DNA from: Vezdaea acicularis
Taxonomy: Eukaryota
Reading direction: 5' to 3'
Assembly (NCBI GenBank): GCA_026025075.1
Contig: JAPEUI010000019.1
Location: 124,001-188,000 of the forward strand
Length of the DNA stretch: 64,000 nucleotides
Shown here: in pieces, positions 27,381 to 54,041 of the stretch
How the letters are laid out: each line of letters begins with the position of its first letter
How positions within the stretch are numbered: the first letter of the stretch is position 1
Notes under the pieces: generated by a model
Seen by the model: only the letters and a program-made list of their open reading frames with translations
Database searches by the model: none
What the model was told of the DNA's origin: nothing
Program-made: the position numbers and the translations under genes

Positions 27381-28164
27381 TCATAAGTCATCCTCACTAT
27401 CTGTCTTCTTCTTCCTGCCCTTCGCGCGTTTCTTTTTCGCCCCTATTCCTTCGCCGTCTTCGGTCTTTTCTGCTGGAGCCACCGCGTCCGGCACCTTTGC
27501 GACAATCTCCTGCAGGAAGTCGAATTGGCTGTCTTTCGCCACAGCTTGTTTGAGATGGGCAGCAGTGATACGTTTCGCTTTTCGAGCGTTGGCTTCGTCG
27601 GACGCCTTCCCGATGAGTGATATCATGAAGAGCTCGAGTGCTTTGGCTTCGGAGAATTAAAGTTAGCGATGGAATGAGATGAGACGGTTACGTGCAACAA
27701 GAAGACTTACAAACGACTACTGGAGTAACCTGCGCGACCTTCCCCACATCCTCGTCCGCTTGCATTATTCGCTTTATTCGTGCGACAGGAAATTTAGTCT
27801 TCACTTCGATGCCTCGTCCAACGCCCCCCTCTACCGACGATTGTGGTATCTCTGGTGCTTTACCATCGTATCCACTGTCTTCCGGTGCAGCTGGTGCCTC
27901 AGGCAGCCATTCTGAATCTTCCCGCTGTCTCTTCTGCCTGGTACGAGGAGCCATTAGTGACGGCGGCGGTAAATTTCCGTCCCGGTAGAATATTGGAGCA
28001 GGTTGAGGTTGAGGTTGAGGATCAAACCCAGATTGCGGAAATAGCGGTGGGGCTAATTGGCCATGTGTTTGGGCGTATGCCGGTGAATGTGACGGTGGAG
28101 GAAAGTTGTCGAATGCGGATAGGTTAGGGGAGCGAGGGGTGTAGGTGCTGTCAGGGTCTGTCAT
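27381..28164 (-). CDS. BUR6: NC2 alpha subunit (Bur6/DRAP1), histone-fold transcription regulator; start codon uncertain
   Basis: KTKFPVARIKRIMQADEDVGKVAQVTPVVV|SKALELFM, joined by intron 27647-27710. Confidence 0.88.
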
Positions 28165-28626
28165 GTTTGCGCCGTGGTATCGACCTTTTAAAGTGGGACG
28201 ACGGTACCAAAGGACCACTACGGCCCCACCATTCACTGAAATAAAAAGGGCTAAAAACCAACGACCCGACCGAGCTATAACAAGACCAACCGAATTTTCT
28301 GGCCGTAGCGTATAGTATTATATCAAAGGAATATCGAGGTCGTCCGGCTTTATGTTTCCAAACCGAGAGCACGGCGCCTGTGTTGATTGGCCGAATAACG
28401 CGGACAGGGATGTGCTGTTTTGCGGGACTCGAGCTTGCGTCGAGAGTGTCTGACCCCTCAACCCCCGTTTTCCGAGCGGCGGACAAAGCTGCATTTATGT
28501 CGGCCGCGTCGGGCGCAACAAGGGGCCGCGAGTCTAGCGCGCCTTCGGTTAGTCATCCCGACCAGGGTCTTCGCGTCACTACGCCTGACCCTTCGAAAGC
28601 TTCTCTCGAGACGCACGTCTTTTGCA

Positions 28627-28842
28627 ATGATGATACTTCGAGAGGTTACCGGAGGCTCGTGGCTGCTCAAAGGGCGTCGCGAGAGCTGCGACGTGCTGCC
28701 TTAATGGATCTGGCGCTCTAGATCTGGCGTGCTGTAAGCCCTGCCTTGCGGTGGTTTCTCTCCCAGTCTCGAGGGCCGCTGGAGCCTTGGTTATGCCTTG
28801 GAGCTGTACCGATGATGGCCATAATTACTTGATCTAATCTGA
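28627..28842 (+). ncRNA. Box C/D guide RNA (snoRNA/scaRNA-like), predicted to direct 2'-O-methylation of U2 snRNA
   Basis: Box C ATGATGA at 28627-28633, C'-like ATGATGG at 28812-28818 and box D CTGA at 28839-28842. Guide ACTTGATCTAA (28827-28837) is the reverse complement of the conserved fungal U2 segment UUAGAUCAAGU. Long internal hairpin; no credible coding frame here. Confidence 0.72.
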
Positions 28843-29058
28843 GAAGCTGCGTTTATCCCATTTCTGGGCCTTCTATGGCTCAAGGAACATCAGTCTTGAA
28901 ATATTCTTCTTGGCCTAAATCACAAAAGGCGTGCGAGAGCTTTGTACGAGGACTCGTCTAATGAATGCAAAAAGCATCGAATCAAGGCTAATCTAAGGCC
29001 AAATCCTGATACTGATGAAGGATATCTAGTAGCTTGCAGCGTAGAGTCCATCTATGTC

Positions 29059-30455
29059 TTACCATTTATTCCCAGTACCAACACTAGTATAACCGTTTAA
29101 CTCCTTCTCTTTTGACTCCTGTCCTCCTATTCGACTAAAGATAATCTTGGTAATTTCAACCAACCCTTTCTGTCTCTCCGCTTTCGTATCACTCAGGAAC
29201 ATGGTCGCTACTGGCCAACAGTGGATGGAGTTTTGTTCTTCCCGAGCGTAGACTTTTGTCCCTACCTGCTGCAGCCTTCTTACCAATCGTTTTATCTCGG
29301 ATGCAAACACTTCTTCAGATCCGTAGAAGATCGACATTCCCTGAGAGGGCATGGCTCGTCTCCACCATTCTAGGTCATCACAGGTGCCGGGCGAGACCAG
29401 GGGGTCATCTAGCGATACCCTGGAGCCTGCGTACTGCCGCGCATACAGATGAAGACTCTGAGCATCGAGGAAATCGCTTGGAGTATTTCGATTTTCGGGA
29501 GAGACCAGCGTCACCCATGGCGAGATGAGTGTTGCATGTCCTGGCCTTTTCATAAGATTGGGCAAGTTTGCGAGATAAAGCAAAAGACTCAAGATCAGAG
29601 TGCCGCCAGCAGAGTCACCAGCAACGCAGACCTTTAAGGGATCTCCGATGATAGAAAGGACGTAGTCATATCCGGCAATTGTCTGGTGTAGCTGTGTCGG
29701 GTATACTGCCTCAGGTACGAGGCTGTACTCCAAGGTAAAGAGTGCAGGATTGCGGAAGCCAGCCTGCTTAAGAAGTGTGACCCAAGCAAGAAGGAATTCC
29801 AGATAGAAATAGCTAGATCCCATCGAGAATCCGCCTCCTTACGGATGAGAGTCAGTACATTCTGTAGACCGGTCATATGACTATGAGTGGTGTGATACCA
29901 TGGCAATAATACACTATTATATCTGGTTGCTCAAGCTCATCAATAGTGATCCAGATACCATGGAACCCATTCTGCACGTTATTCAACGATTAGTCAAGGG
30001 CATAAGCTGGGTCACGGGTGACTACCTTTTCCACCTCTCGCCAGTAGACTGAGGATCGAATATACCCGTGCCGTAACAATCTAAAATTCAAGAAAGGCAG
30101 TGCTACCTCTTTGGAGAAGAACACCCGCCCAATGCTAGCTGGAATATCTGCAAAGGCATAGCGAACACATCTGATGATTACATCTTGAAACCAGGTGGCC
30201 TGGCGGACGAAGGGTGAGCGAAGCCGTTGCCTCGTGAAGAATCTCTCTTTGATGAATTGATATGGGAGAGCCAATACTTCATGACATGTCAATTGCACTT
30301 CTGAATCATGGCAATTTGTGGGAAGTACCTAGAAATGGCAATGCTTGAATTCCACACCTCAACGTGACCCAAAGGCCGACCTGAATGATTAATTGAGGCG
30401 CCAGAGATATCAAAAATACCAAACAATCTAAAAAAGAGATCTGACCAAGAATCAT
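29059..30455 (-). CDS. Alpha/beta hydrolase (HSL/GDXG-like, Say1-type), with hydrophobic N-terminus
   Basis: YYCH|GGGFSMG oxyanion motif across an intron, GDSAGG nucleophile elbow, LISPW and HCWP. First exon MILGQISFLDCLVFL. Confidence 0.88.
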
Positions 30456-30997: not shown

Positions 30998-33900
30998 ATG
31001 GCGGCGCCTTCAAGCCCTGTTCCAACAGAACTCGACGTCATAGAGTAAGCCGTAGCTATCAGGGTAGACTCGAATGATGCTAATAAGATCTTTGGAGACT
31101 TCTTAAGCCAGAATCAATTCCAGCTAGACTGAAATGCGCCCTATGCAGCAAACTCGCTGTAGACGCGTATCGGCTTCCATGCTGTAGCCAGTCGGTCTGC
31201 TCAAACTGTATGTCCTCAGCGCATTAGGAGTCATTTCCTTAGAAATTAAGACAGCTAGCTAATGGAAATGTAGGTCACCCTTCACTTGGGACAGCATGCC
31301 CCGTCTGTGAGCACACCCCTCTGTCTCTCAGCGATGTGCTTCCCTCGAGAGCTTTGAGGAATACTATCAAAATCTTCCTGAAAACAAAGATGTCAGAACA
31401 AAAGGCGGCGCTGGCAAAAGACGCGAAACTTATCCCTCAGAGAGGCTTGAACGTCCCCTCTCTCTCTGGCCTAGATACGGAGCCCCAGCAATTGCTTAAA
31501 CCAAACGAAGATGCAAATCCTTCATCACCTACGCAGAAAGATATACAAAATGGATTGTTGGTACAAAATCAGCCGGTCACTAAAGACTTCGGTCAAACTC
31601 CTTCAAACAACATATCTCATAATCAGGCTACCCCAAAAAATGATCTGGAGTCCATGTCGCTTGAAGCTTCGAAAGACATACCAAGAGAATCGATTGAAGT
31701 ATGTAAAGCTATGATTGGATGCCTCAACTTGAAAAGCTAACTCTCACCACAGGAGGTCTTGCCAGAACATCGGGTCAATTCAGACACAAGTGATGGAACA
31801 AGCAACACAGTTCACGCAGATGGTGTTACTGGAAGCATATCACTAGATGGAGCTAATGAAAGTGTGGGGGATCAACCCGCACAAATGAATGCAGGCCAGC
31901 TAGAAGGAAGCACAATACCGCCAATGCAACAATCGCTGAGCAACGGAGCTATGCCTGGTCAAGGTATTCCTGGAGCGAGCTTCATGAATCAAGGCTGGAA
32001 CGGAATGGGAAACCTCAACCCAATGATGCAGATGCAGGGTGGAATGATGGCTGGCGGATTTGGCGCATTTCCGAACATGATGGGTAAGTTCAAACAGCTA
32101 CGGTATAGCTGTGCAGAAATGTGCTAACCATTTTCAACTGCAGGCATGCCAGGGATGGGCATAAACCCAATGGGAATGTCGGCAGGGATGTATGGTGGCT
32201 TTGGCGGTCCGAGCATGGGCATGAATGGCATAGGTGCCATGGGAGGAATGAATGCGGGTATGGGCATGGGATTCAATGCTATGAACAGCGGCTTCAATGG
32301 GTGGAATGGAAATTCTGCTTGGAACAGTGGCCAGAATAATTTCAATCCTAATACATTCGGCATGAACGCCAACCGTATGGGTGATTTTGGGTCCAACTCT
32401 GGGTTCAACTCTGCCTCTGGCAGACACGACCAGATGCATCAGCCGCAAGTTGCGCAATATAACCTTCAGGGACAGTTTCAGCACAGACAAGGCCAGCATC
32501 AACAAAGTCGTGGACGAAATCCCGGCTTCGGCCGCGGTAACAATGGATTTCCAGGGCGAAACGCTGACAGTCAGCCTTTTCCACAGCAAATACCTTCACA
32601 GACAAATCCTGCTAAGAATAATTTGCGAGAATCATCGTCTCAACAACAAACGCCAGCTCCCGCCAATGAGAACAAGATAGCCGAGTCCGCTGCAGAAGGT
32701 TCAAATATAGAAAATAAAGATGCCGAGACGAAGCCCGATGAAGTTTCCAAGGAATTGGGTGGCGCAGATTCGACGGCAGGAACTCTTAAGCCTCCAGGAA
32801 CTCCAGAACCAGCTGGGAATGAGCATGACCGAACAACTGAGAAGCCAGAGCTGCCACTCCAAATGGATGTTGTTGTCGAGGACTCCGATAAAATTCAAGT
32901 TCTTCGAGTACCAGAGACTGTGGTTCTGACGCCTGACACTGATGCCCCCCTAAACGTACTGCCCAACGGAATAATTCCTCCTTCCGGCCCTGCTGCACTA
33001 ATGAACCAAGGCACTTCATTTGATGTTGCCGATCGGGGGCGAGGTGGTTTTCGGGGCGGATTCGGCCGAGGTAACGGAGTAGGGATAGGGTTTCATGGGC
33101 GAGGGCACGGCTCATGGTCCACCCTCGGCGGGGCATCATCGGGGCTAAATGCAAATAAACACACGATGAATTCCTCTCTTGTTTCCATCCCGTCCGAGCC
33201 AAGAGGAGTTGGCGTTGCTGGCGCGCCTACTGCGCCTAAGGCTCTCCGCGAAGGCCTTCCAAATGTAGGGTTAAGAGGTCGCCTAAGTTATCAGCTATCC
33301 ACCAGGGTTTCTGCATCTACCAATTCCGTGGAGAAAGCCAAGAGGTATGTGAGAGTCCCTCAACGAAACTTCGAAATTCCGATTTACTTTTACGTTTGTT
33401 TCTTGCTGTTTCGGTTACCGGTTAGGTTCCTTTTGCTGACATACCTTTTACTAGCCCTAGCCCTAAATACCGTAGATCTCGTTCCAGCTCCAGAAGTCCA
33501 GCCCGCCGTGAAACGGGGGACCTCCAGCGCAATGAACGGCCCGAAGTGGATAATGAAAGCGGGCGTGAACAAAAACGAGGAGACCGCCGGCGGCACTCGC
33601 GACGTTACGAGGATGAGGAGTACGAGAGGGATCGGGAGAGGAATAGGGAGAGGGACCAGGAAAGATCTCGAAGTCGAAGTCGGGGCTCTCCATCACGTAT
33701 AGAGGCATCCCCACGATCAAAAAGGTCCTCCCACCGCCGCCACCGTAGCCGTGAGAGGTACCATCGCCGCCACCGCTCTCGCTCTCGTTCGCGCTCTCGA
33801 TCCCATTCCCGTACCCGTCGTCCCCGTTCTCGCTCTCGCTCTCCAGCACGCCCCTCATCACGTGAAGACAAGTATGACCGTCACGAGAAGAGTGGAGCAG

Positions 33901-51200: not shown

Positions 51201-54041
51201 TTGAGCGCTGTAGTCAACTGGAAGGCCTGTGAATGTTCAAGATTACAGGAGCAAAGAGGTGTAGGGGAGCTTGCATAAGACGGCAGCCTTGCGCCTCGGC
51301 CAATGCTCCACAGATCGCTCTCTGCTATCACCGCATGCGAGCCCCACCACCCGCTGGTACATCGCGGTATGACAGCTTGCGCAGTCAGGATGCAAAGGAC
51401 CTGTGGATATAAATGGGTTTAATGGCAATTCGCAGATGCCTGACTAATTTACACCCTCTTGGCATCACATGTATCGCCTTTGAATTGGTGGCCTCGGCTG
51501 TCGTGGGGAGAGTAGCAACTTTCAGCATTCTTGGCATGTTCAATGCTGTGGAGAATGGGTTGATACGGCGCCGGAGCGCTTGGCAGCTGACGTATGCGAG
51601 AGAAAGCCGCCGAGTTGACAGGGTGAAAGAAAAGCGGCGGCGCGAACACGAAACCACGGTTTTAGGTGCAGCTATGTCAAGGCCGTGGCACTGACCTTGC
51701 CTCCCGGAAGATATCCAGATGCTTGTGAGTGTCGCATGGAGGATGGGTGTCTCAGGAGGTCGTCCGCATTCGTCGTAGTATCGACCCATGCAACTTGGGG
51801 CGGTATTCTGGCGGCGGGACGAGGCCGATCAAGTCAGAATTTGTAGCTTCCTCATTTGCTTTCTCCGGCCTGGCCCACCACACGCCTTACTCCCACAATA
51901 GCCTATCAATTCTCACTCCCGGAATCTTGCACGCTCTTCCTTTTCTTCTCCCTGACTACCTTTCCTCCTTTGAACCTAGCGTCCTACGAACTTCATTTCT
52001 TCCGCGACCCGGCAGCCAGGGTAATTTCACACCTTAATGCTTGAGGCCAATCGTCGATATCCCGGCAGAGGTGCTTGATCGGACGATCGCGGCTCTAACC
52101 TATCTTTCGGGTATCGGAACCATTTGAGGATGTATCGGCGCATCTGGAGAAATGTGCTTTTTTTCCAGCTGACTGCGAGAGACACCCATGGTTCTGTGAC
52201 CTGATCAGCCGGGTATCGACTCCTTTGCCCCTGCGTGATCAGACTGGTTGACACCGTCATTCTTGAGTCTGACCAGGCGCAGGAAGGATGCGAAGGGCCT
52301 CCATTGGTGCAGCCAAGCTCTCGCACTGATCTCTTTACGACGAACGGAGCTTAGGCCTGAGACGTATGTCATGTACGACATCCACGACCGACTAGTCAAC
52401 ACCAGTGAAAAAGCTTCGCAACGTTCAGAATTGGCGATGGCTACCAACTAAGCCCTCTGGTAGCAGGCCAAAGGGCGATACTGCTGAGGCAATTCTGGAG
52501 GGGAAGCTGCACGTGGAAACGCAGTGTCAGCGCTTCGAAACGCGCCGCTAAAGTCAATGATGATCTGCGGTGCCGCTGATGGCTTGAAGACAACTGCTGA
52601 TTGTCCCAAAACGATATTTCTGGCACTGGCGAGCACTGATTCGTAACTCAAAGCAACGCTGATGGCTTGGTTTCTCCGTGGGCTGGACCTCGCTGAACAG
52701 ACGCCAGAGCGCCATGAACAGGGTACTAAAACGATGACCGGCGTGGATCTACCAGACCGGCAAGCCTCACTGGCTAGGGTACACTTCTCGAGCTAGCCTG
52801 CACGCATTTCACCACCAGGTTATAGGACAGATACTCTCTCACAACGACTCGGCGCCAATGCCACCTTTCCTACCCCGAACACCCTTGATGTGCCTTGCCG
52901 GATTGGGCTGCCTAAAGTGCCACGGTGCTCAGCTTGGACTGCACCAATCCTCATTCCATCAACTGGAAGACGTGGCGTGTGGGATTAACCCTCAAACATG
53001 ACGCTGCCTATGGCTAGCTTGTGCATATGCCTTCCCGCACGGATCGAAATGGTCCCTTCGATACCCTGGGTAATGGAGGGGCAGCGCGGGACCATCAGCG
53101 TAGCTTCTAAGGGACGAACAGCAGGCGGGTTGGGCGTGTGAGCTGTTCCTTGGAGTATTAGTGCGTTCGTTGGACCCTTTCCCACCACCACACGCCCGTT
53201 CTCTCCCTCTTCATCGACAATCTCATAGTCGGTATATCTCCTGCGTACGGAAAAACCGGGTTTGCCGCAAGCCAGTGTGACCGTGCAAGCTACTTGGACC
53301 GTCAAGTGGAGACCACTGCGTAATCCTGGATACGGCTTGACTTCAGTACGTTCCGGTGGCCTGGTCCACTAGGGTGCCTTGCCATCCGACATTTTGACGG
53401 CGCTGATCTTTAATTTTTGCTTCCTACCAAGATTCTCCCTCCACATAAATTCTATTTCCCTGCTCCTACTGTTGATCCTGTTAACTGTTGCTCCACCTCT
53501 GCTGCACTGCTCCGTTCTACTTAATTGATCGATCACACGACCCTGACAATTGCTTTGCGCAACATACCGACCCTTCACCTCGTCTATTTTGGATACAATC
53601 AGTCTTGACCTGTCAGCCTGTCCTGAGACTTGCTGCTGTGTATGCGCTGGGAATTGTGTGGGCCGCCTCATCGAGTCATATGGGAATTCTATTTTGGATC
53701 GCCATCCAGTGCATAATCTTTACGCATAGGCTCCCCACACCATCGATACCTTTGGTGCCTTGAGATATATCATCTTTAAGTAACTGGGTAGATCCGACCA
53801 TCCTGCCTATGATCGAATTTTCTCCGGCGGGCCTAACGACAAGGACGGGCGACCAAGCTGGCCGACATCTCTAGGGACCCATCAATCTGACGGGGAATCG
53901 ACTTGAACGCTTCGGAGACCACTCAACCACCTGTATTCGTTGCTATCTGCTAGCAACCTTAAGACACCCACCCTCGTTCCGTCCAATTTCCTTTGTGCTT
54001 ACACTGGTTGCCCCATTTTGTTGGCGACCCGAGTTAGCAAG

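Follow-up and report, generated by a model that had tools for sequence, protein, structure and literature searches.

Background

Nucleotides 21-30 of U2 snRNA base-pair with U6 in the core of the spliceosome, and in vertebrates several riboses in this stretch are methylated by Cajal-body guide RNAs. The locus described here raises the question whether an ascomycete encodes a guide of this kind and, if so, for which residue. A first-pass annotation of 64,000 nucleotides of Vezdaea acicularis DNA (the window, to which all coordinates refer unless stated otherwise) had placed a box C/D RNA at positions 28627-28842, with the residue opposite the fifth nucleotide upstream of box D (D+5) being the U2 G equivalent to vertebrate Gm25.

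Guided methylation of U2 is established in filamentous fungi at another residue, A31/A32. The Neurospora crassa RNA CD29 guides U2-Am31, as found by primer extension (PMC2780460), and Aspergillus fumigatus Afu-191 (AM921920) is assigned to U2 Am32 (PMC2377427, Table 1); both have been related by their authors to human SCARNA9 (PMC2780460, PMC2377427). The snRNA targets in the accessible part of the N. crassa study are four, U6-Am47, U5-Am62, U2-Gm183 and U2-Am31 (PMC2780460), and in the accessible parts of the N. crassa and A. fumigatus catalogues the sole guide for the 5′ end of U2 (helix I region) is that for A31/A32. Canzler et al. 2018 traced CD_29 to Glomerellales and Neurospora and AM921920 to Pezizomycotina; the main-text passages of that study contain no U2 methylation target (PMC5824354). 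Outside the supplements of PMC5824354 and PMC2377427 and the work of Gu et al. 1996 on Schizosaccharomyces pombe, a full-text literature search returned no fungal guide for U2 G26.

The residue in question is methylated in other kingdoms. Human U2 Gm25 is assigned to scaRNA2 in a review table (PMC7960923), which bears out the first-pass statement that vertebrate G25 is methylated by way of a C/D scaRNA. Arabidopsis U2 G26 is 2′-O-methylated according to RiboMeth-seq, and the table reporting it assigns no guide (PMC8053127, Table 3). The U2 of Saccharomyces cerevisiae is described in the review as devoid of 2′-O-methyl residues (PMC7960923), hence the mark is not universal in fungi.

In this work we analyzed the locus for box motifs, U2 complementarity, conservation, folding and coding potential. 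Our reading, built on sequence comparison, is that 28627-28842 on the plus strand, together with a few flanking bases, likely encodes a box C/D guide RNA for predicted methylation of U2 G26 (yeast numbering, corresponding to human G25).

Results

Organization of the locus

The candidate lies between two protein genes, as had been proposed, and both are encoded on the minus strand:

27381-28164, minus strand: gene for NC2-alpha, a DRAP1/BUR6-type histone-fold protein, with exons 27381-27656 and approximately 27700-28164 (PF00808 homologues)
29059-29823, minus strand: alpha/beta-hydrolase gene (homologues)

NC2-alpha is transcribed away from the candidate RNA gene and was used as the syntenic anchor. 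The nearest named relatives of the window are lichen-type and Geoglossum-type ascomycetes, with 66-68% identity for the hydrolase and 40-48% for the N-terminal part of NC2-alpha. According to locus tags, the hydrolase and NC2-alpha genes are adjacent in Vezdaea aestivalis and are separated by 7 to about 50 genes in Sarea, Glutinoglossum and Pycnora.

The elements of the candidate, with the evidence for each in brackets, are the following (L001 is a related locus described in the next section):

28627-28842 with a few flanking bases, plus strand: candidate box C/D RNA (motifs, U2 complementarity, conservation)
28610-28626, plus strand: 5′ flank, putative terminal or external stem (pairing with the 3′ flank in the MFE fold)
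28627-28633, plus strand: box C, ATGATGA (sequence reading and regex)
28634-28809, plus strand: variable G+C-rich interior of 176 nt (free of blastn similarity to L001)
28810-28815, plus strand: box C′, CGATGA (identical in L001, where it likewise opens the 34-nt conserved block)
28816-28826, plus strand: spacer between C′ and guide (GCC and AATT conserved in the pairwise alignment with L001)
28827-28837, plus strand: antisense guide ACTTGATCTAA (identical in L001; complement of U2 UUAGAUCAAGU)
28838, plus strand: single spacer base T (same base in L001)
28839-28842, plus strand: box D, CTGA (identical in L001 and followed by a conserved G)
28843-28853, plus strand: 3′ flank, putative stem partner of the 5′ flank (MFE fold and duplex prediction)

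All motif coordinates of the first-pass annotation were reproduced by sequence reading and a regex pass. Box C is the sole RTGATGA on the RNA strand of the 894-nt intergenic region of the window, and the guide 11-mer occurs once in the 64 kb when both strands are searched. A motif scan of the interior between boxes C and D revealed no CTGA that could serve as box D′. The opposite arrangement, in which ATGATGG/CGATGA would be the true box C and the present CTGA a box D′, was rejected, as the next CTGA does not appear until about 29004 and the flanks there are unpaired.

When the whole window was searched with Rfam 15 at gathering thresholds, there were no matches, including to tRNA, snRNA, rRNA and known snoRNA models. 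A permissive search of the window locus and L001 gave sub-threshold noise only: archaeal sR2, sR7, sR20 and sR22 models on box words (10-14 bits), and adapt33_3, a lncRNA model, on the opposite strand with E 0.16, the only match with E<1. A sub-threshold sR2 match (10.8 bits, E 3.2) covers L001 2691-2634 on the minus strand, including its box C and an internal CTGA.

Conservation in a distant fungus

For comparison, NC2-alpha homologues were aligned and a prokaryotic genome collection was then scanned for contaminating eukaryotic contigs. The NC2-alpha pattern search of genome contigs yielded 138 matching stretches, one of which was confirmed and is designated L001. It lies on contig CAVXRI010000003.1 (376 kb), filed under an uncultured Alphaproteobacteria MAG. 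The 8.6 kb examined carry intron-containing fungal genes (NC2-alpha and a RING-finger gene) and a P450-like ORF. The NC2-alpha of L001 is 83-84% identical to those of Talaromyces amestolkiae and T. pinophilus and has its intron at the same position as in the window, and on these grounds the contig is considered a mis-binned, Talaromyces-like member of Eurotiales. Within the histone fold, the NC2-alpha proteins of the window and L001 are 86% identical along 37 aa and 64% identical along 69 aa. Their N-termini barely align, and the two sequences thus appear to come from two distant Pezizomycotina.

The L001 counterparts, upstream of NC2-alpha on the opposite strand and so in the same relative arrangement as in the window, are:

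L001 2687-2681, strand opposite NC2-alpha: box C, GTGATGA (sole RTGATGA on the RNA strand of the 1851-nt intergenic region)
L001 2577-2572, strand opposite NC2-alpha: box C′, CGATGA (alignment and regex)
L001 2560-2550, strand opposite NC2-alpha: guide ACTTGATCTAA, then T (identical to the window)
L001 2548-2545, strand opposite NC2-alpha: box D, CTGA (identical to the window)

Comparison of the two intergenic regions (894 against 1851 nt) by blastn with word size 7 gave one significant HSP, window 28810-28843 against L001 2577-2544, with 88% identity over 34 nt and E 1.8e-6; the sole other HSP was noise (E 5). This 34-nt block spans C′ through box D, and the pairwise alignment within it contains 21 consecutive identical bases, AATTACTTGATCTAATCTGAG, amid otherwise unalignable intergenic DNA. 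In both intergenic regions the RNA strand carries a single RTGATGA, and it lies upstream of the block. The first-pass expectation that boxes and guide would be conserved beside NC2-alpha in related genomes therefore held in the one relative examined, L001. Alignment of the full regions by MAFFT misplaced box C owing to the difference in length, and we relied on the blastn and motif coordinates instead.

The comparison also revised one box. A C′ box had been proposed at 28812-28818 as ATGATGG; the box is present, but its register was off by two bases. CGATGA at 28810-28815 overlaps ATGATGG by four bases and is the better C′ register since it is this hexamer that L001 conserves.

The rest of the candidate is variable. 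The span from box C to box D is 216 nt in the window and 143 nt in L001, with 103 nt between C and C′ in the latter, so the 216-nt length is not conserved. Comparison of the two sequences revealed neither a shared D′ box nor a shared second guide; the CTGA at L001 2639-2636, a D′ candidate, has no equivalent in the window. The candidate RNA has a single conserved guide, adjoining box D, and an interior that varies in sequence and length.

A search of genome contigs with the DNA pattern TGATG-N8-16-guide-N-CTGA returned no loci. The pattern would miss L001 itself, because the C′ there reads CGATGAC.

Complementarity to U2

The guide ACTTGATCTAA is the exact complement of U2 UUAGAUCAAGU, taken from S. 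cerevisiae, whose U2 5′ end is printed with GGCUUAGAUCAAGUGUAGUA (PMC3177201). The same 11 bases are included in a yeast anti-U2 northern probe (PMC4466884, Table 2). Supplement 4 of the N. crassa study prints only AUCAAGUGUAGU of U2 (PMC2780460), and the UUAG part is thus verified for S. cerevisiae only. The numbering was cross-checked against the N. crassa paper, which puts A31 in the same stretch.

The predicted duplex of guide and U2 has 11 Watson-Crick pairs and one G-U pair, the latter supplied by T28826, giving 12 bp and -14.8 kcal/mol; the prediction for L001 is the same. The guide occupies positions 2-12 before box D, which is the canonical register, with a spacer of 1 nt. C28834, the fifth base 5′ of box D by sequence reading, stands opposite U2 G26 in the yeast numbering, equivalent to human G25. 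Exact complementarity and this register on the S. cerevisiae sequence agree with the D+5 target first proposed, the U2 G equivalent to vertebrate Gm25. A U2-like fragment on the minus strand was considered as another origin of the match and ruled out: the resemblance to U2 is confined to the 11-12 nt core, and the Rfam search did not report U2.

The locus could, in principle, encode a real box C/D RNA for which U2 G26 is not the main or the only substrate, or which acts as a non-methylating chaperone. Four conserved bases, the AATT 5′ of the guide, are left without explanation by U2 pairing; they carry the identity of window and L001 4 nt past it, and AATT together with ACTTGATCTAA might pair over a greater length with rRNA or another RNA. 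Guides with two or three targets each are reported for several fungal C/D RNAs (PMC5824354), among them CD11 and CD27 of N. crassa with multiple targets per guide (PMC2780460). Four conserved bases in two sequences are, however, weak evidence when set against a perfect 11-nt match in the exact canonical register, directed at a residue that is methylated in humans and in Arabidopsis (PMC7960923, PMC8053127). The complement of the guide was also absent by string search from all rRNA target fragments printed for N. crassa. We consider a different principal substrate unlikely, and G26 remains the preferred target.

Coding potential, context and folding

The first-pass annotation had found no credible ORF in the region. 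Reading frames do exist, as four stop-to-stop frames of 80-146 aa overlap the candidate, but none has a coding signal: none of the four gave a Pfam match at E<=0.1, and a six-frame comparison of window and L001 detected no translated similarity beyond the 34-nt block (best E 0.014). The RNA strand has a stop within the block in each of its three frames, and a small conserved ORF was ruled out on this evidence taken together.

Neither a TATA box nor a telomere-like promoter motif was found within 300 nt upstream of the candidate in the window or L001, and no promoter motif common to the two was found. The octamer GGTTAGTC occurs in both upstream regions (window 28546-28553; L001 approximately 3232-3225, minus strand) and resembles a 5′ splice site. 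The sharing is probably meaningless, as regions of such size should have about 25 8-mers in common by chance.

Folding was evaluated for the flanks and for the whole candidate. The MFE fold of the window pairs 28610-28623 with 28842-28853, and the best pairing of the flanks is an interrupted helix of 10 bp (28611-28622 with 28843-28852). Between this stem and the G-A pairs there are six unpaired bases instead of three, and the stem sits 3 nt farther from box C than it should; by sequence reading, C28625-G28843 is the one clean pair in the canonical K-turn register. By sequence reading, the L001 flanks can form a canonical 4-bp stem, GUCC/GGAC, directly after box D, with a 5-bp extension and a 3-nt bulge made up of one base and the GU of box C. 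The flank duplex (16-nt flanks) is predicted at -7.4 kcal/mol in the window and is equalled or bettered by 282 of 2000 shuffled flanks, and at -6.7 kcal/mol in L001, where the corresponding count is 298 of 2000. The fold of 28610-28860 is not better than that of shuffled sequences (z 0.24, with 113/200 folding at least as well), and neither is the whole fold of L001 (z -0.91, 37/200 at least as good).

These features bear on another reading, in which the 34-nt block is a cis-acting element, such as a transcription factor site upstream of NC2-alpha, or a piece of the UTR or intron of a neighbour. The block is located upstream of NC2-alpha in both loci and contains CTAAT, which resembles a branch site; in L001 a RING-finger gene on the same strand follows about 390 nt downstream of it, and the lack of a visible independent promoter motif and the unremarkable folding statistics fit this reading too. 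The distance to the NC2-alpha ATG is, however, 646 nt in the window and 1427 nt in L001. The RING-finger gene, which bounds the far side of L001, has an orthologue in the window starting near 31087; there the hydrolase gene, which is missing from the matching L001 interval, separates the block from it and lies on the opposite strand. A regulatory site would leave three features unaccounted for, namely a perfect CUGA separated by one base from an exact U2 antisense 11-mer, a GAUGA box that precedes the 11-mer by 11 nt, and a lone RUGAUGA upstream in both species. We regard this reading as distinctly unlikely and retain that of a box C/D RNA.

Chance controls

The bare architecture of boxes, RTGATG[AGT]-N10-24-CTGA, occurs 5 times on the two strands of the 64-kb window and therefore proves nothing alone. 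The four sites other than the candidate are at 52557 (+), 42909 (+), 45391 (-) and 9736 (-). The guide is far more selective: when the sites preceding each CTGA were inspected on both strands with 0-2 spacer bases, the perfect 11-mer was found at one of 516 sites in the window, the next best having 2 mismatches, and at one of 81 sites in L001, the next best having 4. A looser control, presence of the 11-mer with at most one mismatch anywhere in L001, was satisfied by 38 of 200 shuffled sequences and is unconvincing alone. Although box-like words and near-matches to the guide can arise at these rates, a chance coincidence of boxes with an 11-mer antisense to U2 is very improbable: the guide matches perfectly and in register, is found again at the syntenic position of a distant fungus, and falls within the sole significant intergenic HSP.

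Discussion

The locus is probably a real and uncatalogued C/D guide RNA gene. Following the established rules for box C/D RNPs, we infer that the transcript, if expressed, would assemble and act in the usual way. Boxes C and D would form a kink-turn on which Snu13, Nop56, Nop58 and fibrillarin (Nop1) assemble; the 11-nt element 5′ of box D would pair with U2 nt 23-33, with a G-U pair at 34; and fibrillarin would 2′-O-methylate the U2 residue opposite the fifth guide nucleotide, G26, the equivalent of human Gm25. No new principle is claimed, since this mechanism is entirely conventional.

Comparison with scaRNA2

The candidate parallels the Gm25 guide scaRNA2 (mgU2-25/61) in function as predicted here, although homology is not demonstrable. 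Both are box C/D guides with fibrillarin chemistry and with the G of AGAUC in U2 as substrate, all by prediction in the present case. The scaRNA2 RNA is likewise long for a C/D RNA, and it has its own gene and is not intronic. Within the models contained in Rfam 15, no sequence relationship between the two was detected. Moreover, scaRNA2 also guides modification of C61 (and G11), whereas the window and L001 have no conserved second antisense element.

A conserved Gm25-equivalent guide would mean that RNA guidance in Pezizomycotina, Talaromyces among them, extends to a second U2 mark of the vertebrate type, and would add a gene missed by automatic annotation and by Rfam. Deletion or mutation of the guide would offer a genetically tractable probe of the role of the methyl group in splicing. 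The candidate may also help to locate the guide for Arabidopsis U2 Gm26; in that plant a modification is present with no known guide, while here a candidate guide is present with no demonstrated modification.

Relation to the U2-A31 guides

CD29 and Afu-191 resemble the candidate in being C/D RNAs of filamentous fungi with a guide at box D that targets the overlapping U2 AUCAAGU, and the guide core ACUUGAU is common to all three (PMC2780460, PMC2377427). In CD29 and Afu-191 the guide ACUACACUUGAU directly precedes CUGA, which places A31 at D+5 (PMC2780460). The candidate, by contrast, has five bases, CUAAU, between ACUUGAU and CUGA and does not have the 5′ extension ACUAC of CD29 and Afu-191. 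It is therefore not a guide of the U2-A31 register, as it is shifted by 5 nt and has G26 at D+5. No other sequence similarity to CD29 was seen, and among the C/D sequences printed in the available N. crassa supplements a string search found none with the present guide (PMC2780460).

The junction of guide and box D has a further property. Window 28831-28842 and L001 2556-2545 contain a tandem repeat of 5 nt, ATCTA-ATCTG, and both loci read ACTTG-ATCTA-ATCTG-A. Removal of one repeat copy leaves ACUUGAU-CUGA, an ending of the CD29 type. The inner CTAA is a single base away from box D, and if used as box D it would put U2 A31 at D+5. Because the U2 bases 5′ of AUCAAGU are UUAG, the complement of which, CUAA, differs by one base from CUGA, a 5-nt slippage could convert an A31 guide into one for G26 in a single step. 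It is conceivable, if doubtful, that the family arose in this way from an A31-type guide (CD29, Afu-191 or SCARNA9-like), an idea drawn from two sequences. Duplication at the junction would have moved the site of methylation by 5 nt, from A31 to G26, and created the 11-bp guide at once. In a bolder form of the idea the degenerate inner CUAA would still act as a second box D, and one guide would serve both G26 and A31. Slippage of this kind, if true, would be a simple and general way for C/D guides to step along their substrate. In either form of the idea, the RNA would stand as the fungal equivalent of the scaRNA2 guide for Gm25, and guided methylation of this residue of the catalytic core would predate the split of fungi and animals.

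Size of the candidate

The N. crassa RNAs CD52 and CD53 are C/D RNAs of about 180-210 nt and, like the candidate, have G+C-rich interiors; their guides are unrelated to that of the candidate, and CD53 is an orphan (PMC2780460). Judged by these lengths, the 216-nt span between boxes C and D is not out of range for Pezizomycotina.
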